A DNA stretch of 40,808 nt. Source: Pirellulales bacterium (GTDB lineage Bacteria > Planctomycetota > Planctomycetia > Pirellulales > UBA1268). Both the position numbers and the translations under genes were made by a program. How positions within the stretch are numbered: the first letter of the stretch is position 1; the number at the start of each line of letters is the position of its first letter. The notes under the pieces are model-generated. The model was not told where the DNA came from, did not search any database, and saw nothing but the letters and a program-made list of their open reading frames with translations. The stretch spans positions 1 through 40,808 of the forward strand of contig JBIKXY010000002.1 in the NCBI GenBank assembly GCA_044355515.1. The letters are read 5' to 3'. This document shows, one piece after another, positions 1,730 through 27,164 of this stretch.

Positions 1730-1833
1730 GCGCAGACCCGGGAACGCAGGGTACAACAGGCCGCGTCCCTTGCCGCCGCCGGGATCATACCTGCTCCGGC
1801 GGCCGGTTGCTGCATCCCGCGGGAGATCGCCCG

Positions 1834-6819: not shown

Positions 6820-7974
6820 CTACTGCGGCACGAGCGGGCGGCCGCGCCACCTGGTTTTGAGGCCGAGGGCTTTGCGGACCAGGGCCACCCACTGGATCGC
6901 GAGAAACACGGCGACACCCAGGGGATGGAGGATGGCGCTCGAGAGGCTCTGTCGGAACCGGATCGCGTCGAGGATCCGTGGGAGATACGCGAGCACCGCC
7001 GCGGCCAAGGCGACCACGGCGCCGCCCGTCGGCCAGCCGGCGAAGCCCGTCGCCAGGCCCTGCGCGGCGAGCAGCGGCGGCAGGACGGCGCCGCCCGCGA
7101 GCAGGATCGTGAACGGCAGGATCGTGGCCGCCGAGCCGACGCCCTCGGTGGCGTTCTTCGCCAGCCCGCGCCAGACGTCGAGGCTGCGGGAATACATCCG
7201 GCAGGAGGCGATTTCCGTGGCGTCGAAGATGTCGGTGACCAATCCAGCGCGGCGGAAGGCCCGGGGCAGCTTCAGGCCGTCGTGGAGCGATGCCCGGATC
7301 GCCGCGTGGCCGCCGGCCCGCTCGTAGTCGGCCCGCCGGGTGACGAACAGCTGCCCGCAGCCGGCCGCCAGGCTCGGGTCGTTCACCTGCCGCGAGCGGG
7401 AAAGCGGCAGGTAGCCCAAGAGCACGAAGTGGATCAGCGGCAGGAGCAGCCACTCCAAAAACGACCCCGTCTCCTGCCGCGGGAAGCCGCTGGCAAGCGC
7501 CGCCCCGCTCGCATCGAGGAAGGCCACCGACCGGGCGATCGCGTCGCGGGCGGGCACCACGTCCACGTCGAGAAACACCCAGCTGTCGTGCCGCGCGGCC
7601 CGGGCCAGCTGCCAGCAGGCGTGCTGCTTGCCGCACCAGGCCTCCGGCAGCGGGCTGCCGGGCACGAGCCGCACCCGCGGGTCGCGGGCCGCGGCCTCCC
7701 TGACGAGCTCCGCCGTCCGGTCGTCGCTGGCGTCGTCGAGCACGACGAGCTCGAGTTCGACCCCCTCGCTCGCCAACACGTCGGCGATGAACCGGCCGAT
7801 CGCCCGCTCCTCATTGCGGGCCGGCACGAGCACCGAGACCTGCGGCCACGGCCTGCCGGCCGCTGGCTCGGGCGGCGGGCGAAACAGCCGCAGGTTGGCG
7901 AGCGTGAGCAGCGCGGGGATCGCCGCCAGGACGAGCCCGGCCCACGCCAGCACCAGGATCACGACCGGACTCAC
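6820..7974 (-). CDS. family 2 glycosyltransferase, carotenoid glycosyltransferase-like (CrtQ/CruC-type)
   Basis: The 384-aa product has an N-terminal TM helix, then VSVLVPARNEE...LVVLDDASDDRT (GT2 DxD region), GKQHA, and C-terminal TM helices. Its GTG start (7972-7974) overlaps the upstream gene stop (GTGA). It is the last gene of an operon that contains two CrtI-family genes. Confidence 0.8.
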   Translation of the reverse strand: MSPVVILVLAWAGLVLAAIPALLTLANLRLFRPPPEPAAGRPWPQVSVLVPARNEERAIGRFIADVLASEGVELELVVLDDASDDRTAELVREAAARDPRVRLVPGSPLPEAWCGKQHACWQLARAARHDSWVFLDVDVVPARDAIARSVAFLDASGAALASGFPRQETGSFLEWLLLPLIHFVLLGYLPLSRSRQVNDPSLAAGCGQLFVTRRADYERAGGHAAIRASLHDGLKLPRAFRRAGLVTDIFDATEIASCRMYSRSLDVWRGLAKNATEGVGSAATILPFTILLAGGAVLPPLLAAQGLATGFAGWPTGGAVVALAAAVLAYLPRILDAIRFRQSLSSAILHPLGVAVFLAIQWVALVRKALGLKTRWRGRPLVPQ

Positions 7975-8798
7975 GCGTCGCCCCCGCTCGCGCCGCCATG
8001 GGAAGGATCGAACCGCCGGCCCCGCAGCCAGGCTCCGAGCCGGCGGATCGTGTCGTAGGCCGGCCCCACGCCCACGCGGCCCGCGAGCAGCGGCCGGAAA
8101 GCGGCGGGGTCACGAGCGATCGCCGCGGCGGCGAGCCGATCCTGGGTGGCCGTCAGCTCGGCAGCCAGCACGCTCGTCCACTCCTCGGCGGAGCGGCCGG
8201 GATGGTCGGTGATCCGGATGGCCGTGCCGAAGGCCGCCACCGCCTCCGGAGACCGCTCGCTCCAAAACGGATACTCGACCGCGAAGGGCAGGACCACACC
8301 CCGCCTGGCCGCGGCGACGGCGTGGCCCACCCCGGGGCGGATCACGACCGGCCGGCCCCGCGGATCGGTGAACTCGCCCTGGGCCGTGATCCACAAGATC
8401 ACGTCGCTCCGCTCGAGCGCCGCCCGGGCCATCCGCAGAAACCGGGCTGATCCCCGCCAGGTGCCCGGCTCGATCCCGATGAAGCCGATCCGCTCCAAAA
8501 ACCTGTATTTGCCCAGGGCCGCCGCGTCGATCGGGCCGTAGCTCATCCGGCCTGGGTAGAGCGTGGCCCCCGCCAGCAGGAACACGAGCGGATCCCACCA
8601 GCCCGGATGGTTCGTGGCGACGAGCACCGGCTCACCCTCGAGGTCGGGATGCCCCGGGCCGCCATCAGGCCCGGCCAGCAGCCGGACCGCGTGAAAGTGC
8701 CGCCGTAGGTAGCGGCGGACATACCACATGAACCAGCCGTTGAGCTGGTGGGAGAACGGCGGCAGCTCGTGCTCGTGTCGCGGTTCGCCGCGTGCCAT
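7971..8798 (-). CDS. PlsC/lysophospholipid-acyltransferase-family acyltransferase (CruD-like candidate)
   Basis: The 275-aa product carries the HX4D motif in VATNHPGWWDP and an ITAQGEF block in the position of the FPEGTR motif. It starts 3 nt after the stop of the upstream CrtI-family gene and overlaps the downstream GT2 start. Confidence 0.75.
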   Translation of the reverse strand: MARGEPRHEHELPPFSHQLNGWFMWYVRRYLRRHFHAVRLLAGPDGGPGHPDLEGEPVLVATNHPGWWDPLVFLLAGATLYPGRMSYGPIDAAALGKYRFLERIGFIGIEPGTWRGSARFLRMARAALERSDVILWITAQGEFTDPRGRPVVIRPGVGHAVAAARRGVVLPFAVEYPFWSERSPEAVAAFGTAIRITDHPGRSAEEWTSVLAAELTATQDRLAAAAIARDPAAFRPLLAGRVGVGPAYDTIRRLGAWLRGRRFDPSHGGASGGDA

Positions 8799-8801
8799 GG
8801 C

Positions 8802-10361
8802 TCACACCGCCACGGCGGCGGCGGTGCGGGCCCGGGGCACGAGCTGGTCGGCATCGACGCAATCGGCGGCGATCCAGCCCGACATCAGGGCCATCGGCAT
8901 GCCCGGGCCGGGATGGGCCGAGCCGCCGGCCAGGTACAGCCCCTGGACGTCGGGCGAGCGGTTGGCCGGCTTGAACGCTCCGAGAAACCTGCCGTGGCTG
9001 GCCAGACCGTAGATCGCCCCGTCGAGCACGTGATAGCGGTCGTTGATGTCCTGCGGCGTGAGGGCCCGCTCCACGACGATGTGCTGCTCGAGATCCTTCA
9101 TGCCGGCGGTCTCGACGAGCTTGCGGATGATCCGGTCGCGATAGGCCGGCAGCATCTTCGACCAGTCGTGGTGGGGCCGGAGGTAGGGCGTGTGGACCAG
9201 GACATACAGCGCCTCGCCGCCGGGCGGAGCAACCTCGGGCTCGGTCACGGCCGGGGCACAGACGTAGCAGGTCGGATCGGGGGCCGGCTCGCCCCGGCGA
9301 TAGATCGCGTCGAACTCTTCGTGCGGGTCTTCCGAGAACACGAAGTTGTGGTGGATCAGCTGCTCGTACCTCTTGTCGAGGCCGAGGTACAGCACCACGC
9401 CGGAGCAGGCCGGCTCGTAGCCGCGGCGGCCCAGGAACCGCCGGGATGGCTCGCCCGCGACGAGTTCGCGGTGGGTGCGGACGGTATCGGAGTTGCTGAC
9501 TACGGCCGCGGCTGCAATGACCTCGCCGTCGGCCGTCTCCACCCCTCGCACCCGCCCTCCCTCGACGAGAATCTGCTTGACAGCCGTGTTGGTGCGGATC
9601 TCGACGCCGAGGTCCACGGCCAGGCTCGCCAGGGCCCGCGGCACGGCCCCGGTGCCCCCGCGGGGATACCAAACGCCGTCGTGCGACTGCATGTGGGCGA
9701 TCCCGCAGAGCACCGCCGGCGAGTTCTCCGGCGAGCTGCCCACGTACTGTGTGAAGTGGTCGAGCATCTGCGCCGCCCGCTCGTCGGGCACGAACGACCG
9801 CACCGTGCCGGCCACGCTCCGCCCCATCCGCATCCCCAAGATGTCCTTGAGGAAGCCCACCGAGAAGCTCTGCCGCGGCTCGAACATGTCCCGCATCCCG
9901 CCCACGCTTCGCCAAAAGAAAAACTCGTCGGAGATCCGGTGGAGCCGCTTGGCCAGGTCCATGAACCGGCCATAGCCGGCCCCCGCGCCGCTGCCGGGGG
10001 CGAACTCGTCGAGCGTGGCCCGCATCGCGGCCACGTCGGCCTTGAGGTCGAGGGTGGTGCCGTCGGTGAAAAAGCTCCGCCACTGCGGGTCGAGCGGCAC
10101 GAGGTCGAGCGACGTCTCCAACTCCCGCCCCGCCTCGGCCCAGATCCGCCGCAGCACCCGCGGGATCGTCAGGATGGTGGGCCCCATGTCGAACCGGTAG
10201 CCCGCCTCGGAGAGCACCGCCGCCTTTCCCCCCACCCAGGCGTTCTTGTCGCAGAGCGTCACCGCGTAGCCGCGGGCCGCAAGGGTGCAAGCCGCCGCCA
10301 GGCCGCCGAGGCCGCCCCCCACCACCACCACCCGCTCGCCGTCTTCCGTCCGCCGCATCAT
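8802..10361 (-). CDS. CrtI-family FAD-dependent carotenoid desaturase/oxidase (CrtN/CrtP-like)
   Basis: It has the Rossmann dinucleotide motif VVVVGGGLGGLAAACTLAARGYAVTLCDKNAWVGGK, followed by YRFDMGPT. I prefer start ATG 10361 (MMRRTEDGERV) because GGGAG lies 7 nt upstream. The track start at 10415 is an alternative. Confidence 0.85.
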   Translation of the reverse strand: MMRRTEDGERVVVVGGGLGGLAAACTLAARGYAVTLCDKNAWVGGKAAVLSEAGYRFDMGPTILTIPRVLRRIWAEAGRELETSLDLVPLDPQWRSFFTDGTTLDLKADVAAMRATLDEFAPGSGAGAGYGRFMDLAKRLHRISDEFFFWRSVGGMRDMFEPRQSFSVGFLKDILGMRMGRSVAGTVRSFVPDERAAQMLDHFTQYVGSSPENSPAVLCGIAHMQSHDGVWYPRGGTGAVPRALASLAVDLGVEIRTNTAVKQILVEGGRVRGVETADGEVIAAAAVVSNSDTVRTHRELVAGEPSRRFLGRRGYEPACSGVVLYLGLDKRYEQLIHHNFVFSEDPHEEFDAIYRRGEPAPDPTCYVCAPAVTEPEVAPPGGEALYVLVHTPYLRPHHDWSKMLPAYRDRIIRKLVETAGMKDLEQHIVVERALTPQDINDRYHVLDGAIYGLASHGRFLGAFKPANRSPDVQGLYLAGGSAHPGPGMPMALMSGWIAADCVDADQLVPRARTAAAVAV

Positions 10362-10411
10362 GTCGTGACTCCCTCGTGTGAATCTGGTGCAGCGCGCGGC
10401 TCGCGGCCGCC

Positions 10412-11965
10412 TCAAACGGCCGCCGCCGCTTCGTGCCCGGCGACCGCCCCCTTGGCCCGCGGAGCGGGCCGCTTCGACCCGGTCATGCCCAGGTCGTCGA
10501 GCAGGAGATCCGTCGTGATCCGGGCGGACGAGTAGATCACCGGCAGGCCGCTGCCTGGGTGGGTGCCGCCCCCCACGAGATACATCCGTTCCACGTCCTC
10601 GAACCGGTTGTGGGGCCGCATGTGGAGCATCTGCCCCAGGTCATGCGAGAGGTTGAACGTGGCTCCCCGGTAAATCTCGTAGCCGTCCTGCCAGTCGTCG
10701 GGCGTGAGCATCTTCTCGTAGCGGATCCGCTCCCGGACGCCCCGGATTCCGACCCGCTCCATCTGGTCGAGCGCCACCTCCCGATACCCCGCGCCCTCCC
10801 GCCGCCAGTCGACATTGGGGTGGCGGTGGGTGACGGGGATCAACAGGTAGAGCGTGCTCATCCCGGCCGGGGCGAGCGTGGGATCGGTGATGCCGGCGTT
10901 TTGCACATACATCGAGGGATCCGCCGAAAGCCGGTGCCGGTGCTCGATGTCGGCCAGGTTCTCCCGGTAGTCCTCCGAGAGGTAGATGTTGTGGTGGGCG
11001 ACGTCGTCGTACCGCCCCTCGATGCCGAGATAGAGCATGAAGGTCGAGCAGGAGAACCGCCGCGAGGCGATTCTGCGGTCGCTCCAGCGGCGCCGCAGCG
11101 AGTCGGGCACGAGCCTGGTCATGCTGCGGGCGAAGTCGGCGTTGACCACCGTGGCGTCGGCCTCGTAGCGGCCCTGCGGAGTCTTCACGGCGGTGATCTT
11201 CCGCCCCGCGAACTCGAGCGCCTCGACCGGCTCCTCGTAGCAGATCTCGACACCCATTTCCTGGGCGATCCTGGCCATCGCAGTCGAGACGGCGCCGCAG
11301 CCGCCGATCGGGTGGAAGACGCCGTGCTCATACTCCAGAAACGAGAGGATCGAGAACAGGCTCGGGCAGCGAAAGGGCGACATGCCCAGATACTTCGACT
11401 GAAAGGTGAAGGCGAGCCGGATCCGCTCGTCGCTGAAGAAGGTGCCGAGCTCCGCGTCGAGGCTCCGCCAGGGCTTGAGCAGCGGCATCAGCCTGATCAG
11501 GTCGGGGTTGGCGAGGTCCCGCCACGACTGGAACGGCTGCTCGAGGAACGGCGCGAACCGGGCGAACTTCTCGCGGGTCGATTCCATGAACCGCGTGAAC
11601 GAGCCGTGGTCGGCCGGCGAGAGCCGGGCCACCTCGGCCTCCATCCGGGCGATGTCGGGCGTGGCCGCGATCTCCCCGCCGGCTCCGAAGACGAGCCGAT
11701 ACTGCGGGTCGAGGCGGATCATCTCCACCTCCCGCCGCAGGTCGCGGCCGCAGGCCGTGAAGATCTCCTCGAGCACCCGCGGGTAAAGGAAGAACGTGGG
11801 CCCGAGGTCGAACTTGAAGCCCTCGGGCGTCGTGATCGTGCTCGTCCGTCCCCCAGGCACGGGCAGCCGCTCGAGCACCCGCACCCGCACGCCCGAGTTG
11901 GCCAGGAGCATGGCACAGGCGAGCCCGCCCGGCCCCGCTCCGATGATGTTGACCGTCCGCGTCAT
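10412..11965 (-). CDS. CrtI-family phytoene/diapophytoene desaturase
   Basis: The sequence MTRTVNIIGAGPGGLACAMLLANSGVRVRVLERLPVPGGRTSTI...FKFDLGPTFF is a typical CrtI N-terminus. The product is 517 aa and this is the first gene of the operon. Confidence 0.85.
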   Translation of the reverse strand: MTRTVNIIGAGPGGLACAMLLANSGVRVRVLERLPVPGGRTSTITTPEGFKFDLGPTFFLYPRVLEEIFTACGRDLRREVEMIRLDPQYRLVFGAGGEIAATPDIARMEAEVARLSPADHGSFTRFMESTREKFARFAPFLEQPFQSWRDLANPDLIRLMPLLKPWRSLDAELGTFFSDERIRLAFTFQSKYLGMSPFRCPSLFSILSFLEYEHGVFHPIGGCGAVSTAMARIAQEMGVEICYEEPVEALEFAGRKITAVKTPQGRYEADATVVNADFARSMTRLVPDSLRRRWSDRRIASRRFSCSTFMLYLGIEGRYDDVAHHNIYLSEDYRENLADIEHRHRLSADPSMYVQNAGITDPTLAPAGMSTLYLLIPVTHRHPNVDWRREGAGYREVALDQMERVGIRGVRERIRYEKMLTPDDWQDGYEIYRGATFNLSHDLGQMLHMRPHNRFEDVERMYLVGGGTHPGSGLPVIYSSARITTDLLLDDLGMTGSKRPAPRAKGAVAGHEAAAAV

Positions 11966-12574: not shown

Positions 12575-12834
12575 CACGTCCCTTCCGGGTGGTCGGACCC
12601 GCCGTTGAATGCGGTCCATGATCGGGGCGGATGCCCGGCGATCACTCGTCCGATGACATGAGGATACGCACGCTTGGCACCCGGTTCAAACTGCCGCTAA
12701 AGTCTGCCACTCCGCCCGTCACACTGGGAAAGCGGCAGCGATCCGGGGGCCACCAGGGGGCCATCCGGGGGCGGTCGCGGCCCCGCTCTCCCCGCCCCCC
12801 CTCCCGATCCTCAGATTCCAGGCGAATCGACACC

Positions 12835-15660
12835 TTGAACGCACCAGCACCCGCCGACCCAGCCCCGAGCCGCACGCCTCCGGGCGGCTTTCCGGCCGTG
12901 CTGGTCGTGCGGGTTCTGACGGTCTTGAACGACAACCTCGCCCGTTGGCTGGTGATCGGCCTGGGCAAGCGGGCCGCGCTCTCGGTCGGCGCCACCGAGG
13001 CGGCGGTGCTCGCGGTGGGCACCGTCGTCTACGTGCTCCCGTTCATCCTCTTCGCCTGGCTCGCCGGCTGGCTGGCCGACCGGTTCACGAAGCGGTCGAT
13101 CGTGATCGGGGGCAAGTTCGCGGAGATCGCGATCGCGGTGCTCACGGCGGCGATCATCGCCTGGGGCACGGCCTCGGGCCCGCTGCTCGCGGGCCTGCCG
13201 CTCGGGCTCTGGCTCCTGATGGCCGCGATCGGGCTGTTCGCGATCCAGACCACGCTCCTGAACCCGAGCCTCCTGGGCACGATCCCGGAGACGGTGCCGA
13301 GCGGACGGCTCTCGGCCGCCAACGGCGTGTTCGCGCTGGTCTCGCTGGCGGCCACGCTCGTGGGCATGGCGCTCGGCAACTGGCTCGCCGACGCCACCTG
13401 GCTCTCGCCCGCGGCCGACGCCGCTCGCCCCCTGCCGGCCTGGCTGGCCGGCCTGCCGGCAGCCCACGCCGCGCGGGCCGCGGCGCTGCTTTTCGGCGTG
13501 GCCGTGGTCGGCTGGCTCGCGTCGCTGGCGTTGCCGCGGGTGCGGGCCGCCGACCCCCGGGCCGCGTTTCCCTGGAACGCGTTCGCGGCCACGTTCCGCG
13601 ACATCCGGCTCTTGCTCGCCACGCCCAAGCTCGCCGGGGCCGCGGCGGGCATCATCTACTTCTGGGCGATCGGCGCGGTCGTGCAACTCAACGTCGATCA
13701 ATATGCCTTCGAGAGCGGGGCCACCGCCCAGGGCCAGGTGATTCCGCTGCTCTTGGCGCTCGTCGGCGGGATCGGGGTGGGCAGCCTCCTCGCCGGCCGC
13801 TTCTCGCGGCGGGGCATCGAGGCCGGCTCGAAGGTCGATCTCGGGTTCGTGCCCTTGGGCATGCTCGTGATGCTGGTGGCCTGCGGGGCCTTGGCCCTCT
13901 CCGGGCGGGAGATCTTCGTCGGCGAGGGCTCCCCTGCCCTGCGGCTCGTTCCGCCGATCTTCTGGCTGGCGGTGCTCGGGATCGGGGCCGGGATGTTCGA
14001 CGTGCCGCTCGAAGCCTACCTCCAGGAACAGAGCCCGCCGGCGAAGCTCGGCACGGTGCTCGCCTCGACCAACATGCTCGTGTTCACGGGGATGCTCGTG
14101 GCCTCGATCGCCTACTACGGCCTGCGGGTGCCGGTGGGCGCGGGCCAGGCCGCCCCCCTGCTCTCGGCCCGCGGCATCTTCGGGCTCTTCGGCCTGATGT
14201 CGGTGGTCGCCCTGGCCGTGGCCGTCTGGGCCGCCCCCCGGGCCACGCTGCGGTTCGTCGTGGGGGGCATCGTGGGCACGGTCTGGCGGTTCCGGGTCTG
14301 CCAGGAGGAGAACGTGCCGACCACTGGCCCCTTGGTGATCGCGGCCAACCACCTCTCCTGGCTCGACGGCTTCCTCCTGCCGCTGGCGGCGCCCCGGCCG
14401 GTGCGGATGGTGGTCTACGGGCCCAACATCCAGGGCCGGTTTCTCAACCTGCTCGCCGACCAGTGGCGGTTCATTCTCTTCGACCCCAAGCCCAAGTCGA
14501 TCGGCCGAGCGCTCAAGGCGATCCAGGGGGGCCTGGCCGACGGCGACTGCATCGGCATCTTCTGCGAGGGGGGCATCTCCCGCACCGGCCAGATCCTCGG
14601 CTTCAAGCGGGGCCTGGAGTGGCTGCTCGAGCGGGTCGAGTCGCCGATTTTACCGGCCTCGATCGACGGGATGTGGGGGAGCCTGCTCTCGTATTCGGAG
14701 GGCCGCTACTTCACGAAGTGGCCCCGGGGCTTCCGCCGCACCGTGACGCTCACCTTCGGCACGCCGCTCCCGGTCGGCACCTCGACCGACCTCGCGCGGC
14801 TCGCGCTCCAGGAGCTCTCGGCCACGGTCGTCCGCCGCCGGATGGCCGCCCGCCGCCCGCCGCGGGGCTTCAGCGGTGACTGGGCCGCGGCCTGCGCCGA
14901 GGCCGAGGCCTTCGACGGCGCCTGCCTCCTGCGCCGCGAGGATCGGCTCGTCACCTCGCTCGCTCCCGGCGACCCACTCGCGGGCACGCTGGGCACCCAC
15001 GCCAGGCCGCTGCTCGGCATCGCCGCGACCCTCATCGACGCCACGAACCCGGCCGGCGAGATCGCCCGCACGCTCGCCGCCACCCGGGCCACGATCTGGC
15101 TGGCCCGCGTCGCGCAGGTGGAGGCCCTCGCCGCCGAGCCGGCCGGCCACCCGAAGCTCGTCGACCACCTCGCCGCGATCGTGATGCCGATCGCCGCGGC
15201 GGCCGACCTGCCCTGGGCCCGGCATGCCGCCGAGCGGTTTCGCGAAACAAACGGCATCGAGCCGGTGGTGGCCTATTGCCCGCGGGAGGCCTGCCGCCTG
15301 GTGGCGATGAACACGCCCCCGGCCCGGGCGGCCGGCGACTTCGAGATCACCTGCAAGCCCGAGTCGCTCGGCCGCGTCTTGAACGGCGGCGTGGTCTGGC
15401 CCCGGGCGTCGCTCCGGCCCCCGCTGGGCCTGCGGTCGCTGGCCTCGGCGGGCATCCCCGACACCTCCGACGCCACGCTCGTGATTTCGGCCCTCCTCCC
15501 CTGCCCCGCCGATTCGGCTCCCGCCGCCACCCTCCTGGCCGACGCCCTGGACGTGGACAAGGAGGGCTTCCTCGTGCCCCGGGCCGCGCTGCCCCCCGCG
15601 GATTCCGCGAGTCTCACCGACTCAACGGATTGCGGCACCGGAGCCGGGGGAAGCGGCTGA
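12835..15660 (+). CDS. fusion protein: MFS transporter (LplT-like) + PlsC-type acyltransferase + degenerate adenylation-like C-terminal domain
   Basis: This is the frame of track ORF 12631..15660. The start is uncertain: TTG 12835 is preferred because the 12631-12834 part has poorer codon bias and a non-protein-like Arg/Ser/Pro sequence, and ATG 12631 or 12658 remain possible. About 12 hydrophobic helices span 12.9-14.25 kb. The acyltransferase motifs follow: AANHLSWLDG (His codon 14350-14352) and IFCEGGISRTG. The last ~270 aa resemble the middle of an acyl-ACP/CoA synthetase, but no TSGTTGxPKG P-loop is visible. Confidence 0.7.
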   Translation: MNAPAPADPAPSRTPPGGFPAVLVVRVLTVLNDNLARWLVIGLGKRAALSVGATEAAVLAVGTVVYVLPFILFAWLAGWLADRFTKRSIVIGGKFAEIAIAVLTAAIIAWGTASGPLLAGLPLGLWLLMAAIGLFAIQTTLLNPSLLGTIPETVPSGRLSAANGVFALVSLAATLVGMALGNWLADATWLSPAADAARPLPAWLAGLPAAHAARAAALLFGVAVVGWLASLALPRVRAADPRAAFPWNAFAATFRDIRLLLATPKLAGAAAGIIYFWAIGAVVQLNVDQYAFESGATAQGQVIPLLLALVGGIGVGSLLAGRFSRRGIEAGSKVDLGFVPLGMLVMLVACGALALSGREIFVGEGSPALRLVPPIFWLAVLGIGAGMFDVPLEAYLQEQSPPAKLGTVLASTNMLVFTGMLVASIAYYGLRVPVGAGQAAPLLSARGIFGLFGLMSVVALAVAVWAAPRATLRFVVGGIVGTVWRFRVCQEENVPTTGPLVIAANHLSWLDGFLLPLAAPRPVRMVVYGPNIQGRFLNLLADQWRFILFDPKPKSIGRALKAIQGGLADGDCIGIFCEGGISRTGQILGFKRGLEWLLERVESPILPASIDGMWGSLLSYSEGRYFTKWPRGFRRTVTLTFGTPLPVGTSTDLARLALQELSATVVRRRMAARRPPRGFSGDWAAACAEAEAFDGACLLRREDRLVTSLAPGDPLAGTLGTHARPLLGIAATLIDATNPAGEIARTLAATRATIWLARVAQVEALAAEPAGHPKLVDHLAAIVMPIAAAADLPWARHAAERFRETNGIEPVVAYCPREACRLVAMNTPPARAAGDFEITCKPESLGRVLNGGVVWPRASLRPPLGLRSLASAGIPDTSDATLVISALLPCPADSAPAATLLADALDVDKEGFLVPRAALPPADSASLTDSTDCGTGAGGSG

Positions 15661-16048
15661 AATCCCGATCGACCGTCCAGAGTTCATCGACCCCGTGGAT
15701 CACGCAGCAGGCGGCGATTCGGGCGTCGTGGATCATGCCGCCTGTGACCCGGCTGGCGACGGCCAGTTCCTCGAGCAGTTCGAGGCTGTCGTCGGAATCG
15801 TGCAGGATTCGGAGGCTCGGCGACTCCCGCCAGGCACGAATCTGATTCACGGCGGCCGCCGGGCTCGACGGCTTGCCCCACAGCCCGCGGCGGGTGACGA
15901 CGGCGTGGAACTCCACCAGCGTGTGGTAGCAGACCGCCCAGGGGGCCGCCGCCTCGGCCAGTTCCGCGAGCAGGGGCAGGGCCCGGTCGTGGAGGCTGGC
16001 ATCCCGGCGGTGGGCATGGACCAGGATATTCGTGTCCAGAGCGATCAC
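15614..16048 (-). CDS. vapC: PIN-domain toxin VapC
   Basis: The sequence MIALDTNILVHAH...DARIAACCVIHGVDELWTVDRDFSRFP shows PIN acidic residues in the canonical positions. The GTG start overlaps the antitoxin stop (GTGA at 16045-16048). Confidence 0.85.
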   Translation of the reverse strand: MIALDTNILVHAHRRDASLHDRALPLLAELAEAAAPWAVCYHTLVEFHAVVTRRGLWGKPSSPAAAVNQIRAWRESPSLRILHDSDDSLELLEELAVASRVTGGMIHDARIAACCVIHGVDELWTVDRDFSRFPRLRCRNPLSR

Positions 16049-16452: not shown

Positions 16453-16526
<74 letters not shown>

Positions 16527-17758: not shown

Positions 17759-17909
17759 GACGAGCCCGGGATCGGCGGCTGCTCGAGGAGCTTTTGGGAA
17801 TCGCCCCTCTGGATTTTCAAGCGCAGCCACCTTGGCCGAGCCACCCCACAGCCGGTCGCCGCGATTCCCACCGCGACAAGACAGCTGCCGTCCCGGGCGG
17901 TGCCAACCG
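17759..17909. repeat. 151-bp structured intergenic repeat, copy 1
   Basis: Identical to 17939..18089 except for one base (17878 A versus 18058 G). There is an internal inverted repeat: the outer arms CCCGGGATCGGCGGCTG (17765-17781) and CAGCTGCCGTCCCGGG (17882-17897), and a perfect 10-bp inner stem TGGGAATCGC (17795-17804) / GCGATTCCCA (17861-17870). Confidence 0.9.
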
Positions 17910-17938
17910 GCGGCCTCACGGACCCCAGCCGAACACCG

Positions 17939-18089
17939 GACGAGCCCGGGATCGGCGGCTGCTCGAGGAGCTTTTGGGAATCGCCCCTCTGGATTTTCAA
18001 GCGCAGCCACCTTGGCCGAGCCACCCCACAGCCGGTCGCCGCGATTCCCACCGCGACGAGACAGCTGCCGTCCCGGGCGGTGCCAACCG
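17939..18089. repeat. 151-bp structured intergenic repeat, copy 2
   Basis: A direct repeat of 17759..17909, offset by exactly 180 bp (29-bp spacer 17910-17938). Confidence 0.9.
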
Positions 18090-19541: not shown

Positions 19542-20471
19542 TTGGGCGATTCCCCGGCAGGCTCCTCGCCCACCGCCGTGTTGTTCCCCGGCCAGGGCGC
19601 CCAGACGGTGGGCATGGCGGGCGACTGGGTCGAGGCCAGTCCGGCCGCCGCCGACTTGTTTCGGCGGGGCTCTGAGATCTTGGATTACGACCTGCTTGCG
19701 GTCTGCCGCCAGGGTCCGGCCGAGCGGCTCAACACCACGGCCGTCAGCCAGCCGGCGATTCTGGTGACGAGCCTCGCGGCCCTCGAGGTCCAGCGGGCCC
19801 GTGACCCATCGCCGCTCGAAGCCGCCACGCTCACGGCAGGGCTGTCGCTCGGCGAGTACACCGCGCTCGTGTTCGCCGGGGCGCTCGAGTTCGATGACGC
19901 CTTGCGGATCGTGGCCGAACGGGGGCGGGCGATGCAGGACTGTGCGGAGTCGGCGCCGAGCGGGATGGTGGCTGTATTGGGGATGGAGCGGGCGGCCGTC
20001 GTGGCCCTCTGCGACGCCTGCCGAGACGGCGGGATTCTCCAGGTGGCCAACGTGCTCTGCCCCGGCAACATCGTCGTCTCGGGCGACCGCGAGGCCTGCG
20101 GGCGGCTGGAGGAGGCGGCGGCCGCCGCCGGGGCGATGAAGTGCGTCCGGCTGGAGGTGGCCGGGGCCTTCCACACGCCGCTGATGCAGCCAGCGGTCGA
20201 GCGGCTCACCGCCGCCCTGGCCCGGGCCGAGTTTCGTCCGCCCCGGATTCCGGTGGTCAGCAACGTCGATGCCCGGCCCCACACCGATGCCGCCGAGATC
20301 CGCGGGCTTTTGGCGCGGCAGGTGGTCGGAGTTGTCGAGTGGCACGACTCCGTGGCATACATCCTCTCCACCGGCGTCCGCTCGGTGTGGGAAATCGGTC
20401 CCGGCCGCGTGCTCCGCGGCTTGATGAAGCGGATCGACCGGTCCGTCGCCACGAGCGGCGTGCTCGACTGA
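19542..20471 (+). CDS. fabD: malonyl-CoA:ACP transacylase
   Basis: AVLFPGQGAQTVGM, the active-site motif GLSLGEYTALVFAG, and the product length of 309 aa support the call. The TTG start lies 4 nt after the rpmF stop. Confidence 0.9.
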   Translation: MGDSPAGSSPTAVLFPGQGAQTVGMAGDWVEASPAAADLFRRGSEILDYDLLAVCRQGPAERLNTTAVSQPAILVTSLAALEVQRARDPSPLEAATLTAGLSLGEYTALVFAGALEFDDALRIVAERGRAMQDCAESAPSGMVAVLGMERAAVVALCDACRDGGILQVANVLCPGNIVVSGDREACGRLEEAAAAAGAMKCVRLEVAGAFHTPLMQPAVERLTAALARAEFRPPRIPVVSNVDARPHTDAAEIRGLLARQVVGVVEWHDSVAYILSTGVRSVWEIGPGRVLRGLMKRIDRSVATSGVLD

Positions 20472-20510: not shown

Positions 20511-21305
20511 ATGGCGGAAGCGGGGGACGCGAAGAAGAAGACGCAGCCGGAGGGGCGGATCAAGGTCGAACTGGCCGGGCAGGTGGCCCTCGTCACGGGC
20601 GCCTCGCAGGGACTGGGTCGGGCGATCGCCGAGGCCCTGGCCGCCAGCGGCGCCACCGTCGCGCTCGTGGCCCGTTCGGCCGACAAGCTGGCCGACGTGG
20701 CCGGCGGGATCGTGGCCGCCGGCGGCAAGGCCGAGGCGTTTCCCTGCGACGTGATGCAGGCCGAGGCCATCCAGCAGGTGGTCGATGCCGTGGTGGAGAA
20801 GTTCGGCCGGCTCGAGATCCTCGTCAACAACGCCGGCGTGACCCGCGACACCCTCCTGCCCCGGATGAGCGACGACGAGTGGGATACGGTGCTCACCACC
20901 AACCTCCGCGGGCCGTTCCTCTTCATGCGGGCCGCCAGCCGGCCGATGATGCAGCAGCGGTACGGCCGGATCGTGAACGTGGCGAGCGTCTCAGGGCTGA
21001 TCGGCAACCCTGGCCAGGCCAACTACTCGGCCTCGAAGGCGGGCCTCGTGGGGCTCACCAAGACCGTCGCCAAGGAACTGGCCGGCCGCAAGATCACGGT
21101 CAACGCCGTGGCCCCGGGCTTCATCGCCAGCGAGATGACGGCGGCCCTGGGCGACGTCCTGCTCGACGAGGTCAAGAAGCGGGTGCCCGCGAAGCGGCTC
21201 GGCGAGGCGACCGAGATCGCCGACGCCGTGCTCTTTCTGGCCTCGCCCTCGGCCGGCTACATCACCGCCCAGACGCTGGTCGTGGACGGCGGGCTGATCG
21301 GGTGA
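20511..21305 (+). CDS. fabG: 3-oxoacyl-ACP reductase
   Basis: The SDR motifs VALVTGASQGLGRAIA, NNAGV and YSASKAGLVGLTK (YxxxK) are present. GGAGG lies upstream of ATG 20511. Confidence 0.9.
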   Translation: MAEAGDAKKKTQPEGRIKVELAGQVALVTGASQGLGRAIAEALAASGATVALVARSADKLADVAGGIVAAGGKAEAFPCDVMQAEAIQQVVDAVVEKFGRLEILVNNAGVTRDTLLPRMSDDEWDTVLTTNLRGPFLFMRAASRPMMQQRYGRIVNVASVSGLIGNPGQANYSASKAGLVGLTKTVAKELAGRKITVNAVAPGFIASEMTAALGDVLLDEVKKRVPAKRLGEATEIADAVLFLASPSAGYITAQTLVVDGGLIG

Positions 21306-21742: not shown

Positions 21743-21997
21743 GTGGCATCAGTTCAAGATCGAGTGATCGAAATCGTGGCCTCGCAGCTCGGGGGCAACA
21801 AGGAGCAGATCACCCGGGAGACATCGTTCATCAATGACCTCGGCGCCGACTCGCTCGACACCGTCGAACTGGTGATGGAACTCGAGGAAGAGTTCGAGAT
21901 CAACATCCCCGACGATGCCGCCGAGAAGATCCAGACCGTCGGCCAGGCGATCGACTTCATCGAGAAGCAGCAGGCCTCCGGGTCTGCCGCCGGCTGA
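21743..21997 (+). CDS. acpP: acyl carrier protein
   Basis: The phosphopantetheine attachment motif [19 protein letters not shown] is present. The product is 84 aa, with a GTG start. Confidence 0.92.
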
Positions 21998-22012: not shown

Positions 22013-23257
22013 ATGAAGCGACGGGCGGTGGTGACGGGCCTGGGAGTGGTCACGTCGCTGGGACGGGCCATCGAGACCTTCTGGGAGCGGATCGTCCGCG
22101 GTGACAGCGGCGTCGGCCCGATCGACCTGTTCGGGGTCGAGGGCTACCGCGTCCAGTTCGGCGGCCAGGTGCACTGGAACGGCGAGGCGGAGGAGATCGC
22201 GCCGCCCAAGGAGCTCAAGCGGCTCGACCGGTTCACGCAGTTCGCGCTGGCCTCGGCCAAGGACGCCGTGGCCGATTCCGGGCTCGACTTCTCGACAGAG
22301 GATCCCTTCCGCTGCGGCGTGGTGATCGGCTCGGGGATCGGCGGGCTGTGGGAGTTCGAAGTCCAGGAGGAGCGGCTGCTCCACAAGGGCATCGACAAGG
22401 TCTCGCCGTTCACGATCCCCAAGTTGATGGTCAACTCGGCCAGCGGCCACGTTTCGAGTCTGTACGGCATCAAGGGGCCGAACTTCGCGGTGGCCACGGC
22501 GTGCGCCAGCGCCGCCAACTCGATCGGCTCGGCCCTGCGGGCGATCCAATACGGCGACGCCGACGTGATGGTCACCGGCGGCAGCGAGGCGGCCCTCACG
22601 CCGATCGGCCTGGCCGGCTTCCAGAACATGCGGGCCCTCTCGTTCCGCTCCGACGCGCCCCAGGCCGCCAGCCGCCCCTTCGACGCCGACCGCGACGGGT
22701 TCGTCTTGGCCGAGGGGGCCGGGGTGATCGTGATCGAGGAACTGGAGCATGCCCGCCGCCGCGGGGCGCGGATCTACGCCGAGCTCAAGGGCTACGGAGC
22801 CAGCGGCGACGCCGGCCACATCACGCAGCCCGACGAGGAGGGCCGCGGCGCGGGCCAGGCGATGGCGGCGGCGCTGGCCGACGCGGGCCTGGGGGTGGAC
22901 GCCGTGGACTACATCAACGCCCACGGCACGAGCACCCCGCTGGGCGACAAGGCCGAGACCGCCGCGATCAAGCGGGTGTTCGGGCCGCAGGCCAGGCGGC
23001 TGGCCGTCTCCAGCACCAAGAGTCAGCTCGGCCACACGCTGGGGGCCAGCGGCGGCATCGAGGCCGTGGTCTGCTCGCTCACGATTCTCCGCGGCGTGAT
23101 CACACCCACGATCAACTACCACACGCCCGACCCGGCCTGCGACCTCGACTACACGCCCAACGTCGCCCGCGAGGCGAAGGTGGGCGTGGCGATGAGCAAC
23201 AGTTTCGGGTTCGGGGGCCACAACGCGAGCCTGGTGCTCGCCCGGCTCGATTCCTGA
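22013..23257 (+). CDS. fabF: beta-ketoacyl-ACP synthase II
   Basis: The start is MKRRAVVTGLGVVTSLG. The catalytic Cys lies in AVATACASAANS, the first His in INAHGTSTPLGD, and the Lys/His in STKSQLGHTLGASG, followed by NSFGFGGHNASLV. GGGAGA lies upstream of the ATG. Confidence 0.93.
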   Translation: MKRRAVVTGLGVVTSLGRAIETFWERIVRGDSGVGPIDLFGVEGYRVQFGGQVHWNGEAEEIAPPKELKRLDRFTQFALASAKDAVADSGLDFSTEDPFRCGVVIGSGIGGLWEFEVQEERLLHKGIDKVSPFTIPKLMVNSASGHVSSLYGIKGPNFAVATACASAANSIGSALRAIQYGDADVMVTGGSEAALTPIGLAGFQNMRALSFRSDAPQAASRPFDADRDGFVLAEGAGVIVIEELEHARRRGARIYAELKGYGASGDAGHITQPDEEGRGAGQAMAAALADAGLGVDAVDYINAHGTSTPLGDKAETAAIKRVFGPQARRLAVSSTKSQLGHTLGASGGIEAVVCSLTILRGVITPTINYHTPDPACDLDYTPNVAREAKVGVAMSNSFGFGGHNASLVLARLDS

Positions 23258-23290: not shown

Positions 23291-24274
23291 ATGGACCGGT
23301 CGCGGCAGCACACCCTGGTGCTCGGCATGCTGCTCGCGGCATGCCCGCTGGGCTTCCGTCAGGTGCAGGGGCAGCTGCCTTCCGACGCAGGTCAGACCTG
23401 GAAGACCTACGACCTCGGGCCATTCGTGAGAGTCGCCGGCGAGGGAAGCGAGCGGCACGTGGTCGAGTGGATTCTCCAGGAGACGGGCTATCCAGCCTGG
23501 CACGGCACCGTCTCGGCCTCGCTCTCGGCCGGCGCTGGCAAGCTCTCCTGCTACCACACCCCAGAGATGCAGGACCACGTGGCGGAGATCGTGGAGCGGT
23601 TCGTGGCCGAGGCGGACGCGCCGCATCGGTTCACGGTGCGGGTATTCGGCGTCGATGGCCCGGGCTGGCGGGCCACCGCCCGGCCCGCGCTCCAGCCGAT
23701 TCCCACGGCCACGCCGGGCGTGCAGGCCTGGATCGTGCCCCGCGAGACGGCGGCGGCGGTGCTGGCCGGGCTGCGAGGCCGCAGCGACGTCGCCGAACTG
23801 CCCACCGGGCCGGTGCTCGCCGCCAACGGGCTGCCGGCGTCACTCAAGGGGGGGCGGCAGCAGGCCTACGTGGAGGACTACGCCCAGACGCCCAACGCCT
23901 GGCCGGGCTGGCAGCCCAAGCAAGCCACCTGCGACGAGGGACTGGCCGTCGATCTTCACCCGCTCGTTTCCCGCGACGGCACGGCGGTCGAGGCCGCGTT
24001 TCGCTGCCGCATCGACCAGATCGAGCGGATGGCGCCGGTCTCGCTGCCGACCCCTGCCGGGGGGCAGGCACTGGCCGCCCAGGTGCCGCAGGTGGCGGCG
24101 GTGCGGATCGGCGAGCGGTTCCGCTGGCCGGCATCGCACACGCTGGTGATCGGGCTCGGGTTGGTGCCGTGGCCGGTGCCCGCGCAGAATGGTGCGCTGG
24201 TGGCCCTGCTGCCCGGCGTCGCGCGGAGGGACGTAGTCGTGGTGGTGGAGCCGCGGCTGGCCAGCGGCCGCTGA
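23291..24274 (+). CDS. hypothetical secreted protein between two KAS genes
   Basis: ATG 23291 has GGAGGG upstream. The signal-like N-terminus is MDRSRQHTLVLGMLLAACPLGF, and G/C third-position bias is high. The gaps to fabF (33 bp) and to the downstream KAS paralogue (52 bp) are short. No firm family assignment. Confidence 0.65.
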   Translation: MDRSRQHTLVLGMLLAACPLGFRQVQGQLPSDAGQTWKTYDLGPFVRVAGEGSERHVVEWILQETGYPAWHGTVSASLSAGAGKLSCYHTPEMQDHVAEIVERFVAEADAPHRFTVRVFGVDGPGWRATARPALQPIPTATPGVQAWIVPRETAAAVLAGLRGRSDVAELPTGPVLAANGLPASLKGGRQQAYVEDYAQTPNAWPGWQPKQATCDEGLAVDLHPLVSRDGTAVEAAFRCRIDQIERMAPVSLPTPAGGQALAAQVPQVAAVRIGERFRWPASHTLVIGLGLVPWPVPAQNGALVALLPGVARRDVVVVVEPRLASGR

Positions 24275-24326
24275 TCGCGACTGGCCCGGCACCGGCCGGC
24301 CTGGGTAACAACCTGACGGAGATGGC

Positions 24327-25658
24327 ATGAGCGAGCGACGGGTGGTGGTGACGGGGCTGGGCGTGGTCTGCCCGCTGGGTTTGACGACCGACGACGTGTG
24401 GACCGGCCTGGAACGGGGCACGAGCGGCGTCGGGCCGATCGAGTCGTTTTCCGCAGCCGGGCTCCCGCTGCGGCACGCCGCCGAGGCCCGCTGCTTTACC
24501 GGTGCGATCACCGACTTCGGCGACCTCGATGGCGAGAAGAAAAAGGCCGTCCGCAAAGGGCTCAAGGTGATGTGCCGGGAGAGCCAGATGGCGGTGGCCG
24601 CTGCCCAGCGGGCCCTGCACGACGCGGGCGACGCCCTCGCCCGGCATGCGCCGGAGCGGTTTGGCTGCGTGTTCGGCTCCGACTACATGCTCACCCTGCC
24701 CGAGGACTTCACGGCCGGCATCGCGGCCTGCCGGGGAGCCGATGGCGGCTTCGACTTCAACCGCTGGGCCACCGCCGGCATGCCCCTGCTCAATCCGCTC
24801 TGGCTGTTGAAATACCTGCCCAACATGCCGGGCAGCCATATCGCGATCTTCAACGACCTCCGCGGCCCGAGCAACTCCCTCACGGTCCGCGAGGCGAGCG
24901 GCCACCTGGCGGTGGGCGAGGCGGCCGTGACGATCCAGCGGGGGATGGCCGACATCATGGTGGCGGGCGCGACGGGCACCCGCGTCCATCCGATGAAAAC
25001 GGTCCACGCCCTTCAGTGCGAGCAGGTGGCGCTCGAGGGGCTGGGGGGCGACCCGGCCACCTGGAGCCGCCCCTTCGACGCTGGTCGCCGGGGCATGGTG
25101 CTGGGTGAAGGAGCGGCGGTCTTGGTTCTCGAGGAACTCGAGTCGGCGCGGGCGAGGGGCGCGAAAATCTACGCCGAAGTGGCGGGGCACGCCGCGGCCT
25201 GCGGCGCTGATCGCGGTGCCATCGGCCAGCGGCGGGCGACCCTCGCGCAGGCGGTCGGCACGGCGCTGGATCGGGCCGGTCTGGCGGGCGACGGGCTTGG
25301 CCATGTCCATGCTCAGGGCCTGAGCACGGTGACGGGCGACCGCGACGAGGCGGCCGCGCTGTGCGACGTCCTCGGGGACGCCGCCGCTCGAATCCCGACG
25401 GTGGCCGCCAAGGGAAACTTCGGCAACCTGGGCGCGGGCAGCGGCTTGGTGGAGTGCGTGGCCAGCATCCTGGCCCTGGCGCGGGGAACGTTGTTTCCGC
25501 TGCTCAACTACGAGTCGGCCGATGCTGACTGCCCGGTACGGGCGGCCCGACAAGGCGACCCCGCAGGCGAGTCGTTCGTTTCCGCGGCCGCCACGCCGCA
25601 GGGACAAGCCGGGGCCGTGGTTTTTCGCCGCTGGCCTTCAGCTCCAGCAGCTGCTTGA
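24327..25658 (+). CDS. beta-ketoacyl synthase paralogue with a substituted catalytic triad (probably non-catalytic, CLF-like)
   Basis: An ungapped local alignment to the neighbouring FabF shows three substitutions. GPNFAVATACASA aligns with GPSNSLTVREASG (Cys to Glu, codon 24891-24893). INAHGTSTPLGD aligns with VHAQGLSTVTGD (His to Gln, 25314-25316). TKSQLGHTLGASG aligns with AKGNFGNLGAGSG (His to Asn, 25425-25427). The thiolase-fold N-terminus MSERRVVVTGLGVVCPLG is conserved. Confidence 0.8.
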   Translation: MSERRVVVTGLGVVCPLGLTTDDVWTGLERGTSGVGPIESFSAAGLPLRHAAEARCFTGAITDFGDLDGEKKKAVRKGLKVMCRESQMAVAAAQRALHDAGDALARHAPERFGCVFGSDYMLTLPEDFTAGIAACRGADGGFDFNRWATAGMPLLNPLWLLKYLPNMPGSHIAIFNDLRGPSNSLTVREASGHLAVGEAAVTIQRGMADIMVAGATGTRVHPMKTVHALQCEQVALEGLGGDPATWSRPFDAGRRGMVLGEGAAVLVLEELESARARGAKIYAEVAGHAAACGADRGAIGQRRATLAQAVGTALDRAGLAGDGLGHVHAQGLSTVTGDRDEAAALCDVLGDAAARIPTVAAKGNFGNLGAGSGLVECVASILALARGTLFPLLNYESADADCPVRAARQGDPAGESFVSAAATPQGQAGAVVFRRWPSAPAAA

Positions 25659-25844
25659 CAGTCGGCCCTCGGTCGCCTACTCTCGACGGCTTGGCTTTCG
25701 TGAGGATGGTTGCTGGTTCGCGGATTCGCTTCCAGACCTTTTCCGCCGCTCTTGGGCGACGTGGAACAGGTCTCGGCGCCCATGTCGTGGTATGGCGTCG
25801 GCAGTGCCGGCGATGGCATTCCACGCAGGCCGTGCCGAGACACC

Positions 25845-27164
25845 ATGAAACCAGAAGAAATTCTCCGCGTCGTCGATGCGATTCATCGCGACAAAAACAT
25901 CGACAAGGAGATCGTGTTCCAGGCCGTGGAGTCGGCCCTGGTCACGGCTCTTTCCCGTCAGTACGGGGAGACCGCGGCGATCGTGATCGCGATCGACCGG
26001 ACCGACGGCACGATTTCCGGCACGCACGACGGCCAGCCGATCGAGTCGGCCGAGTTGGCCGGCAGGATCGGGGCCCAGACCGCCAAGCAGGTGATCATTC
26101 AAAAAATTCGTGAGGCCGAGCGAGACGCCATCCACGACGAGTTCGAAGAGCAGGTGGGCCACATGGTCTCCGGCGTCGTGACCCGCTTCGAGGGGGCGAC
26201 GGCGACGGTGACGCTCGGGGCCAACGAAGCGATCCTGCCCCGCAGCGAGCAGATCCCGGGCGAGAGCTACCATCCCAACGAGCGGATCCGGGCCACGATT
26301 TTCGAGGTCCGCAAGGTCGGCAGCCGGGTCAAGATCATCCTCTCCCGGATCCGGCCGCAGCTGGTGCAGCGGCTGTTCGAACAGGAGATTCCCGAGATCG
26401 CGGATGGCGTGATCGAGATCCGGGCGATCGCCCGCGAGCCGGGCTACCGCAGCAAGGTGGCCGTGATCAGCTCCGACAACCGGATCGACTGCGTGGGCGC
26501 CTGCGTGGGCGTCCGCGGCAACCGGATCAAGAACATCGTCGAAGAGCTCGGCGGCGAGCGGATCGACATCGTCCGCTGGAGCGACGACCTGCAGGTGCTC
26601 GTGCCCAACGCCCTGCAGCCGGCCGAGGTGGACGAGGTGATCCTCTGCCAAATGCTCGGCCGCGGCATCGTGCTCGTCCGCGAGGACCAGCTCTCGCTGG
26701 CGATCGGCCGCCGCGGCCAGAATGTCCGCCTGGCCAGCAAGCTCTGCGGCTGGGACATCGAGATCATGACCCAAGAGGAGCTCGACCAGCAGATCGAGCG
26801 TGCCACAGCCGGTTTCGCCTCGATCGAGGGGCTCGATGATTCGCTCGCCGAGCGGCTCGTGGGCGAGGGATTTCTCTCATACGACGACCTGTCGGTGATC
26901 GAGCCGGAAGACCTGATGGAGATGGGCGGCTTGTCCGCCGAAGCGGTCGATCAAATAGTTGCGGAAGCGGAGCGGCGGGCGGCACTGGCCGAAGAGGCCG
27001 CAGCCGACGAGCGGCGGAAGCAGCGGGAGCAGGAGCGGATCGCCAAGGCGACGGCGGAGGCCGAGGCGGCAGAGGCTGCTCTCACGGGCGGGTCCGGCCT
27101 GCTGGCGGAGGGCGAGTCGGCGGCACCCGAGGGTGCTGCCGAGGCTGCCGGTGAGTCGCCGTGA
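25845..27164 (+). CDS. nusA: transcription termination/antitermination factor NusA
   Basis: ATG 25845 gives [35 protein letters not shown], a canonical NusA start. The S1 and KH regions follow ([26 protein letters not shown]). The track start at 25710 is a spurious extension. Confidence 0.9.

Follow-up and report, generated by a model that had tools for sequence, protein, structure and literature searches.

A conserved FabF-derived pseudo-ketosynthase encoded near the housekeeping fatty acid genes of a Pirellulales bacterium

Dead ketosynthase paralogues are known as the chain-length factors (CLFs) of secondary metabolism and, very recently, from the ladderane cluster of anammox bacteria. The anammox protein amxFabFmut (KustE3606 and its orthologues; PDB 9s5h) forms a CLF-like heterodimer with amxFabF2, and this complex, amxFabFhet, decarboxylates malonyl-ACP (acyl carrier protein) and in this way primes synthesis (bioRxiv 10.64898/2026.05.19.726425). 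A helix-loop-helix, which in ketosynthase dimers caps the substrate tunnel of the partner, is disordered when amxFabFmut is alone, whereas once the complex has formed it lines the tunnel of amxFabF2; planctomycetes other than anammox bacteria are not discussed in that work (bioRxiv 10.64898/2026.05.19.726425). For Rhodopirellula baltica RB4527 (NP_866153), Table 2 of Rattray et al. (2009) lists the residues Glu163, His298, Lys328, Asn333, Glu342 and Pro392 (FabB numbering), and a second paralogue of the same organism, RB3714, carries Asp163; neither was functionally followed up (PMC2649909), and a literature search found no functional work on RB4527 or on Glu-type pseudo-ketosynthases. In this study, we analyzed a protein of this kind, named here KSx, which is encoded within a 40,808-nt stretch of contig JBIKXY010000002.1 of a Pirellulales bacterium (the window, i.e. 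the whole of this stretch). KSx is a real, conserved pseudo-ketosynthase from an ancient FabF-derived family. A first-pass annotation of the window had named CLFs as the only well-known precedent, to which amxFabFmut and the signature tabulated for RB4527 have to be added.

KSx is encoded by an intact open reading frame (ORF) with an ATG start, and its product matches both ketosynthase domains of Pfam (PF00109 at 8e-33 and PF02801 at 1e-17) and shares 33% identity with the FabF of the same locus (BLASTP, E-value 1e-49). The catalytic columns were identical in three independent alignments (BLASTP to the local FabF, phmmer to solved FabF structures and MAFFT with E. coli FabF), i.e. Glu189, Gln330 and Asn367 occupy the positions of Cys163, His303 and His340 of E. 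coli FabF, whose numbering is used below for all FabF residues. These replacements and their codons had been read correctly in the first-pass annotation, and the alignment with E. coli FabF places no Cys, His or His in the catalytic columns of KSx. The gap-free alignment to the local FabF that it reported for the active-site blocks does not extend to the whole length, over which the two proteins align with gaps and KSx has an expansion of approximately 27 residues in the helix-loop-helix. The gene and its remodelled sites are:

24327 to 25658, + strand: KSx, a 443-aa FabF-derived ketosynthase-like protein without the Cys-His-His triad (Pfam, BLASTP, phmmer, AlphaFold2, Foldseek)
24681 to 24857, + strand: expanded, strongly conserved helix-loop-helix, residues 119–177, including PLWLLKYLPNMP, with KSx-specific invariant residues
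24888 to 24893, + strand: Arg188-Glu189 in place of Ala162-Cys163 (the nucleophile); GAG at 24891–24893 encodes Glu189
24981 to 24998, + strand: Arg219 to Lys224, basic residues at the Ala193 and Gly198 positions (Arg in 171/171, Lys or Arg in 166/171 orthologues)
25314 to 25316, + strand: Gln330 (CAG) at the His303 position
25410 to 25412, + strand: Lys362, the retained equivalent of Lys335 (Lys in 169/171 orthologues)
25425 to 25427, + strand: Asn367 (AAC) at the His340 position
25593 to 25607, + strand: Thr423-Pro424-Gln-Gly-Gln427 in place of the GFGG gating loop (Gly399-Phe400-Gly-Gly)

The orthologues counted above come from 80 syntenic loci of reference genomes and another 80 retrieved from metagenomes with a family profile, which together gave 171 full-length proteins (35–90% identity). 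At the Cys position 168 of them have Glu and three have Asp, never Gln, and at the position of the second His Asn is found in 167. The first His is kept in 129 of the 171, including 46 of the 47 proteins of the 50–60% identity group; its substitutes are Gln, Phe, Val, Tyr, Asn, Ser, Cys and Arg, the repeated losses are confined almost entirely to the clade of the window protein, and Gln occurs in all four relatives with more than 80% identity. As judged from these alignments, the family signature is Glu-His-Asn and the His-to-Gln change is a recent one in the window's own clade. The replacement of all three catalytic residues is therefore true of the window protein, but not of its family. Because the first His was lost repeatedly within this clade under purifying selection, the conserved function does not require it, at least there.

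Residue conservation was compared with that of 87 FabFs from the same loci, which revealed that the remodelling extends beyond the triad. Near-invariant in KSx are Arg188 (Ala162 in FabF; 168/171 orthologues), Arg219 (Ala193), Lys/Arg224 (Gly198), Gly369 (Leu342) and Gln427, and at least 97% of the 171 orthologues keep Glu/Asp189, Arg188, Arg219, Lys362, Asn367 and Gln427. Positions 162, 193, 198 and 202 presumably line the acyl pocket, as in FabB and FabF structures. The GFGG loop, the Phe400 gate and the residues Asp265 and Asn404 have gating roles in ketosynthases (PMC7138838). Within the KSx family the gate is replaced (Pro at Phe400 in 160/171, Thr at Gly399 in 154/171, Gln427 in 170/171) and its partners are gone, with Asp265 changed to Ala, Val or Ser and Asn404 to Ala. 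The ACP-docking Arg206 became Glu in 160 of the 171 proteins and Lys69 became Val or Leu, while Lys65 is kept and Arg68 is kept as Lys. KSx also keeps Lys335, Asp311, Glu314, Glu349 and Thr307, the first four of which are essentially invariant among the orthologues. Contrary to the earlier statement, the scaffold is kept only in part: the GFGG loop, Asp265 and Asn404 have disappeared and Arg takes the place of Ala162. Among the conserved segments, the one most specific to the KSx family is the helix-loop-helix (residues 119–177), approximately 27 residues longer than that of FabF and containing a run of KSx-specific invariants (PLWLLKYLPNMP). Taken at the level of the sequence, KSx very probably cannot act as a condensing enzyme, because no acyl-enzyme could form, the Phe400/GFGG gate is missing, positions of the acyl pocket are basic and Glu stands at the ACP-docking Arg206.

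According to its AlphaFold2 model (built with 61 homologues), KSx keeps a confidently predicted FabF fold, with a predicted local distance difference test score (pLDDT) of 90.8 and a predicted template modelling score of 0.91. The weakest stretch of this monomer model (lowest pLDDT), residues 121–170, lies in the helix-loop-helix and parallels the disorder of the same element in amxFabFmut crystallised without its partner. A Foldseek search of the PDB with the model returned FabF structures as the top 40 matches (template modelling (TM) scores of 0.8–0.88) and no CLF among the top 50. The phmmer scores to KSx were 179 bits for true FabFs, 128 for Act KS, 122 for amxFabF2, 111 for amxFabFmut and 88 for Act CLF.

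The ratio of non-synonymous to synonymous substitution rates (dN/dS) against close relatives is 0.13–0.21 for KSx and 0.06–0.14 for fabF, and this purifying selection shows KSx to be functional. A non-functional relic, i.e. a decaying fabF duplicate, would account for the lost catalytic residues and for a non-synonymous rate approximately 3–4 times that of fabF, but is hardly credible for a gene that has an intact ORF in 171 loci, dozens of invariant family-specific residues and a confident predicted fold; a decaying pseudogene is excluded by the dN/dS values and the 171 intact orthologues. The first-pass view of KSx as a conserved pseudoenzyme, not a pseudogene, is borne out by the same dN/dS values, by the acidic residue (Glu or Asp) that replaces the Cys in 171/171 proteins, by Asn in place of the second His in 167/171 and by the confident FabF fold of the model.

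When 1.84 billion representative proteins were searched, most of the top 150 matches had Glu or Asp in place of the Cys. In a neighbour-joining tree (constructed without bootstrap, from sequences picked by their similarity to KSx), approximately 90 Glu/Asp-type representatives form one clade that includes KSx and contains no Cys-His-His FabF. KSx scores 246.9 bits against the FabF model TIGR03150 (cut-off 493.75) and passes no NCBIfam model; none of 10 diverse family members reaches any NCBIfam cut-off either, and so the family has no curated name. All named members belong to the class Planctomycetia, a taxonomic range that rests on few NCBI names (Pirellulales, Pirellulaceae, Thermoguttaceae and Planctomycetaceae) and on the R. 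baltica paper. A sister group has Asp at the Cys position, as Asp-His-Asn or Asp-His-His (P0140, P0155, P0160, P0172, P0236, P0249 and others), and corresponds to RB3714, the other paralogue of R. baltica; in the two gene contexts covered (P0236 in locus L086 and P0249 in L088) the gene is solitary, amid genes typical of planctomycetes.

The genes around KSx are all on the + strand, in the order ruvC/ruvA/ruvB, fabD, fabG, acpP, fabF, ORF327, KSx, nusA, infB and rbfA:

5' of fabD, + strand: ruvC, ruvA and ruvB
19542 to 20471, + strand: fabD (translation; synteny)
20511 to 21305, + strand: fabG (translation; synteny)
21743 to 21997, + strand: acpP (DSLD motif in the translation; synteny)
22013 to 23257, + strand: fabF, canonical Cys-His-His (TIGR03150, 586.8 bits, cut-off 493.75)
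23291 to 24274, + strand: ORF327, a 327-aa secreted protein with a predicted secretin-like fold (signal peptide, AlphaFold2, Foldseek)
24318 to 24321, + strand: GGAG, a Shine-Dalgarno-like motif 6 nt 5' of the KSx ATG (read from the sequence)
25846 to 27164, + strand: nusA, whose likely true start is the ATG at 25846; infB and rbfA come next

KSx had been placed in the core acpP-fabF operon, with fabF 1 kb upstream. The two genes do not adjoin, as the 327-aa gene at 23291–24274, overlooked earlier, lies between them. The spacers are short (33 nt from fabF to ORF327 and 52 nt from ORF327 to KSx), no terminator-like sites were detected between fabF, ORF327 and KSx by a scan in which such sites occur at chance rate, and a promoter scan of the locus gave 0 matches. 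The G+C content of the window is approximately 70%, and that of third codon positions (GC3) ranges from 0.86 to 0.95 across the ORFs from the ruv genes to rbfA; with the GC3 of KSx (0.86), its ATG start and the GGAG motif, the intact ORF, strong codon bias and ribosome-binding site claimed in the first-pass annotation were all found again. No fabH is present in the fab cluster or elsewhere in the window. A genome-collection scan identified freshwater Pirellulales and other Planctomycetota metagenome-assembled genomes as the nearest relatives of the window. KSx is separated from the start of nusA by 187 nt (25659–25845); rimP was not found 5' of nusA and KSx holds that position. In other planctomycetes KSx is often located just 5' of nusA-infB-rbfA without fabF (L089, L140, L143 and L144).

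Other parts of the window also carry recognizable features. A 180-bp unit is repeated 1.8 times with 99% identity at 17759–18089, just 5' of the long ruvB ORF and overlapping its 5' end; it looks like a recent tandem duplication, and the real start of ruvB is probably near 18150. On the - strand, the group at 6820–11965 comprises two adjoining CrtI/amine-oxidase-type flavoproteins (8802–10415 and 10412–11965), an unassigned 275-aa ORF and a family-2 glycosyltransferase (6820–7974), and resembles a carotenoid or carotenoid-glycoside cluster. Two genes of the + strand, both lipid-related and within 20 kb of the fab cluster, encode an 1818-aa protein (1348–6804), with only a weak patatin-like phospholipase match under the Pfam cut-off, and a 1009-aa fusion of a major facilitator superfamily transporter with an acyltransferase (12631–15660), similar to lysophospholipid transporter/acyltransferase fusions. 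A tRNA gene (16453–16526, + strand; Rfam, 63 bits) adjoins a PIN-domain toxin-like gene (15614–16048, - strand), 5' of ruvC.

The most unexpected element of the locus is ORF327, which is the most persistent neighbour of KSx, more so than fabF. Its product has an AxA|Q signal peptide and many invariant residues, its dN/dS is 0.17–0.30, and it gave no match in Pfam (E-values up to 10), in NCBIfam or in a profile search of PDB sequences. The AlphaFold2 model (pLDDT 81) consists of N-terminal alpha/beta domains followed by long beta-hairpins, and its top seven Foldseek matches are all secretins (BfpB, two PilQ, the type II secretion system secretin 8co1, the SPI-1 injectisome base 6q14, phage pIV and GspD), found with probabilities of 0.98–1.00 and E-values of 8e-9 to 1e-4, but with low TM scores of 0.24–0.33. 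ORF327 is thus predicted from its modelled fold to be a secretin-like outer-membrane protein. In a crude co-evolution test based on partial correlations of distance matrices (mirror-tree), KSx-ORF327 gave the highest value (0.48) and KSx-FabF the weakest of all KSx pairings (0.15), so that co-evolution of KSx with FabF was not supported.

A comparison of the loci revealed that gene order depends on the identity of KSx to the window protein. Among loci with KSx above 60% identity, fabF lies within 2.2 kb upstream of KSx in 72/72, nusA within 0.8 kb downstream in 83/83 and an ORF327 homologue immediately upstream in 80/91, while below 60% identity the corresponding counts are 6/33, 11/42 and 23/45 (the ORF327 counts were reproduced by a hidden Markov model search). 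All loci with KSx above 60% identity show the order fabD-fabG-acpP-fabF-(secretin-like)-KSx, which is found again in deep relatives at 46–55% identity (L164, L173, L132, L148 and L156), in some cases with fabF directly abutting KSx. Deep relatives (L132, L148, L151, L156, L158, L164, L173 and L174 among them) also have the full order fabF-(ORF327)-KSx-nusA, which is probably ancient. Further relatives are solitary or near nusA only, and many have no link to any lipid gene. A single-protein genome scan had yielded only close freshwater Pirellulales, so the linkage to fabF looked universal until it was corrected by the metagenome profile scan; accordingly, the placement of KSx in the core acpP-fabF operon is valid for the loci above 60% identity but for only 6/33 more distant relatives.

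The reading that we favour, with a probability of roughly 0.4, is that KSx pairs, as a subunit without catalytic activity, with an active ketosynthase, whose tunnel it reshapes. A heterodimer of FabF and the pseudo-ketosynthase that sets the chain length had already been suggested as a speculation in the first-pass annotation, and is plausible. The best candidate for the partner is the FabF whose gene lies two genes upstream; the enlarged, invariant helix-loop-helix of KSx would cap and reshape its substrate tunnel, and the reshaped tunnel may shift the chain-length preference or the priming behaviour of the partner. To our knowledge, every characterised dead homologue of 3-oxoacyl-ACP synthases I and II (KAS I/II) works as the non-catalytic half of a heterodimer, and the partner reading is favoured because of these precedents, the seemingly ancient linkage to fabF and the partner-facing helix-loop-helix, which no other conserved segment of KSx equals in distinctiveness. 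Several observations weigh against it: the local FabF is fully canonical, highly conserved and presumably homodimeric, KSx is closer to true FabFs (179 bits) than to CLF (88) or amxFabFmut (111), and below 60% identity fabF is upstream in only 6/33 loci, with several KSx genes being solitary (L084, L086, L088 and L091). Furthermore, the residual correlation of KSx with FabF is only 0.15, compared with 0.48 for ORF327 (in what is a weak test), and the charged former active site is near-invariant, unlike the variable dead sites of amxFabFmut, which could indicate a new ligand site. In another reading, KSx acquired a function independent of FabF. It would be a homodimer whose former active site (the invariant Arg188, Glu189, Arg219, Lys/Arg224, Lys362, Asn367 and Gln427) binds another protein or a small ligand, polar or anionic, and it would act with the secretin-like protein, e.g. 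in a process linked to the envelope or to export, or in sensing or regulation. This is unlikely in itself, though nearly as likely as the favoured reading. At the distant loci the secretin-like gene is a far more frequent neighbour than fabF (23/45 versus 6/33), the co-evolution signal with ORF327 is the highest one, many relatives have no linked lipid gene, conservation of the dead site is far stronger than that seen in known dead ketosynthases and the ACP-docking Arg206 is Glu in 160/171. However, the secretin-like protein is exported and KSx has no signal peptide, the secretin assignment is a predicted fold with low TM scores (0.24–0.33) and no sequence-level support, and gene adjacency alone is weak, with about half of the distant KSx genes having no secretin-like neighbour; in addition, we know of no cytoplasmic ketosynthase-fold protein that works with a secretin.

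It is improbable that KSx is still an enzyme with other chemistry, i.e. malonyl-ACP decarboxylation for priming (as proposed for KSQ and CLF) or thioester hydrolysis. The ancestral Glu-His-Asn recalls the His-Asn decarboxylation pair in the Cys-His-Asn triad of KAS III and chalcone synthase, His303 is kept in 129/171 proteins (46/47 at 50–60% identity), Asn340, Lys335 and Thr307 are nearly invariant, amxFabFhet primes by decarboxylation of malonyl-ACP and there is no fabH in the window. Against this, the window protein and about a third of its clade have Gln, Phe, Val, Tyr or another residue instead of this His despite purifying selection, the GFGG loop forming the gate and oxyanion hole is replaced, Arg206 is Glu, and a carboxylate at the nucleophile position would be expected to repel the malonyl carboxylate.

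Should KSx pair with FabF, the heterodimer of FabF and a pseudo-ketosynthase would represent the chain-length-factor principle in primary lipid metabolism. A bolder and rather doubtful extension is that the housekeeping type II fatty acid synthesis of Planctomycetia uses such a heterodimer in the manner of a ketosynthase and its CLF, with the secretin-like gene tying the module to envelope biogenesis. If KSx does not pair with FabF, its near-invariant charged pocket and the secretin-like gene that recurs beside it suggest that a ketosynthase fold was co-opted for another task. In either case, the KSx clade is separate, large and strongly conserved, and still unnamed despite a signature tabulated as early as 2009, and the routine annotation of its members as "3-oxoacyl-ACP synthase II" overstates the condensing capacity of planctomycetes.

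Among the known systems, FabF/KAS II (TIGR03150) is the best match of KSx, with which it shares the fold, PF00109 and PF02801, the length and the Asp311/Glu314/Lys335/Glu349 network. Unlike FabF, KSx lacks the Cys-His-His triad, the GFGG/Phe400 gate, Asp265 and Arg206, and with 246.9 bits it stays under the TIGR03150 cut-off of 493.75, so that it cannot be classified as a FabF. The CLFs (KS-beta; Act CLF 1tqy_B, Iga12, AntE and ApeC) resemble KSx in having a ketosynthase fold without the nucleophilic Cys, and they are obligate heterodimer partners that shape the tunnel of the active subunit. However, the CLFs of aromatic polyketide synthases have Gln at the Cys position, where KSx has Glu, and CLFs adjoin a dedicated KS-alpha in a biosynthetic cluster that includes a separate ACP and tailoring genes, whereas KSx is found among housekeeping genes; the absence of this Gln and of a dedicated KS-alpha, the score of 88 bits and the lack of CLFs among the top 50 Foldseek matches argue against KSx being a CLF. 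The protein amxFabFmut is, like KSx, a planctomycete FabF homologue with all three catalytic residues mutated and a genuine FabF as its nearest structural relative, and it demonstrates that ketosynthases of the fatty acid synthase type can employ a dead paralogue in the role of a CLF. Its substitutions are different (Cys to Val or Thr and the two His variably to Asn, Glu or Cys, compared with Glu/Gln/Asn in KSx), and it is encoded beside its dedicated amxFabF2 in ladderane cluster I (with amxACP, amxFabZ, radical-SAM and phytoene-desaturase-like genes), while KSx has no ladderane cluster I genes on its flanks and lies beside a housekeeping FabF or is solitary. On these grounds, and with a score of 111 bits, KSx was not assigned to amxFabFmut either. 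The closest counterpart is RB4527 of R. baltica, another protein of the Pirellulales annotated only as a 3-oxoacyl-ACP synthase II. Its Glu163, Lys328, Asn333, Glu342 and Pro392 correspond to Glu189, Lys362, Asn367, Glu376 and Pro424 of KSx, and it keeps His298 where the window protein has Gln330; this signature, together with the taxonomy, suggests that RB4527 is an orthologue of KSx.

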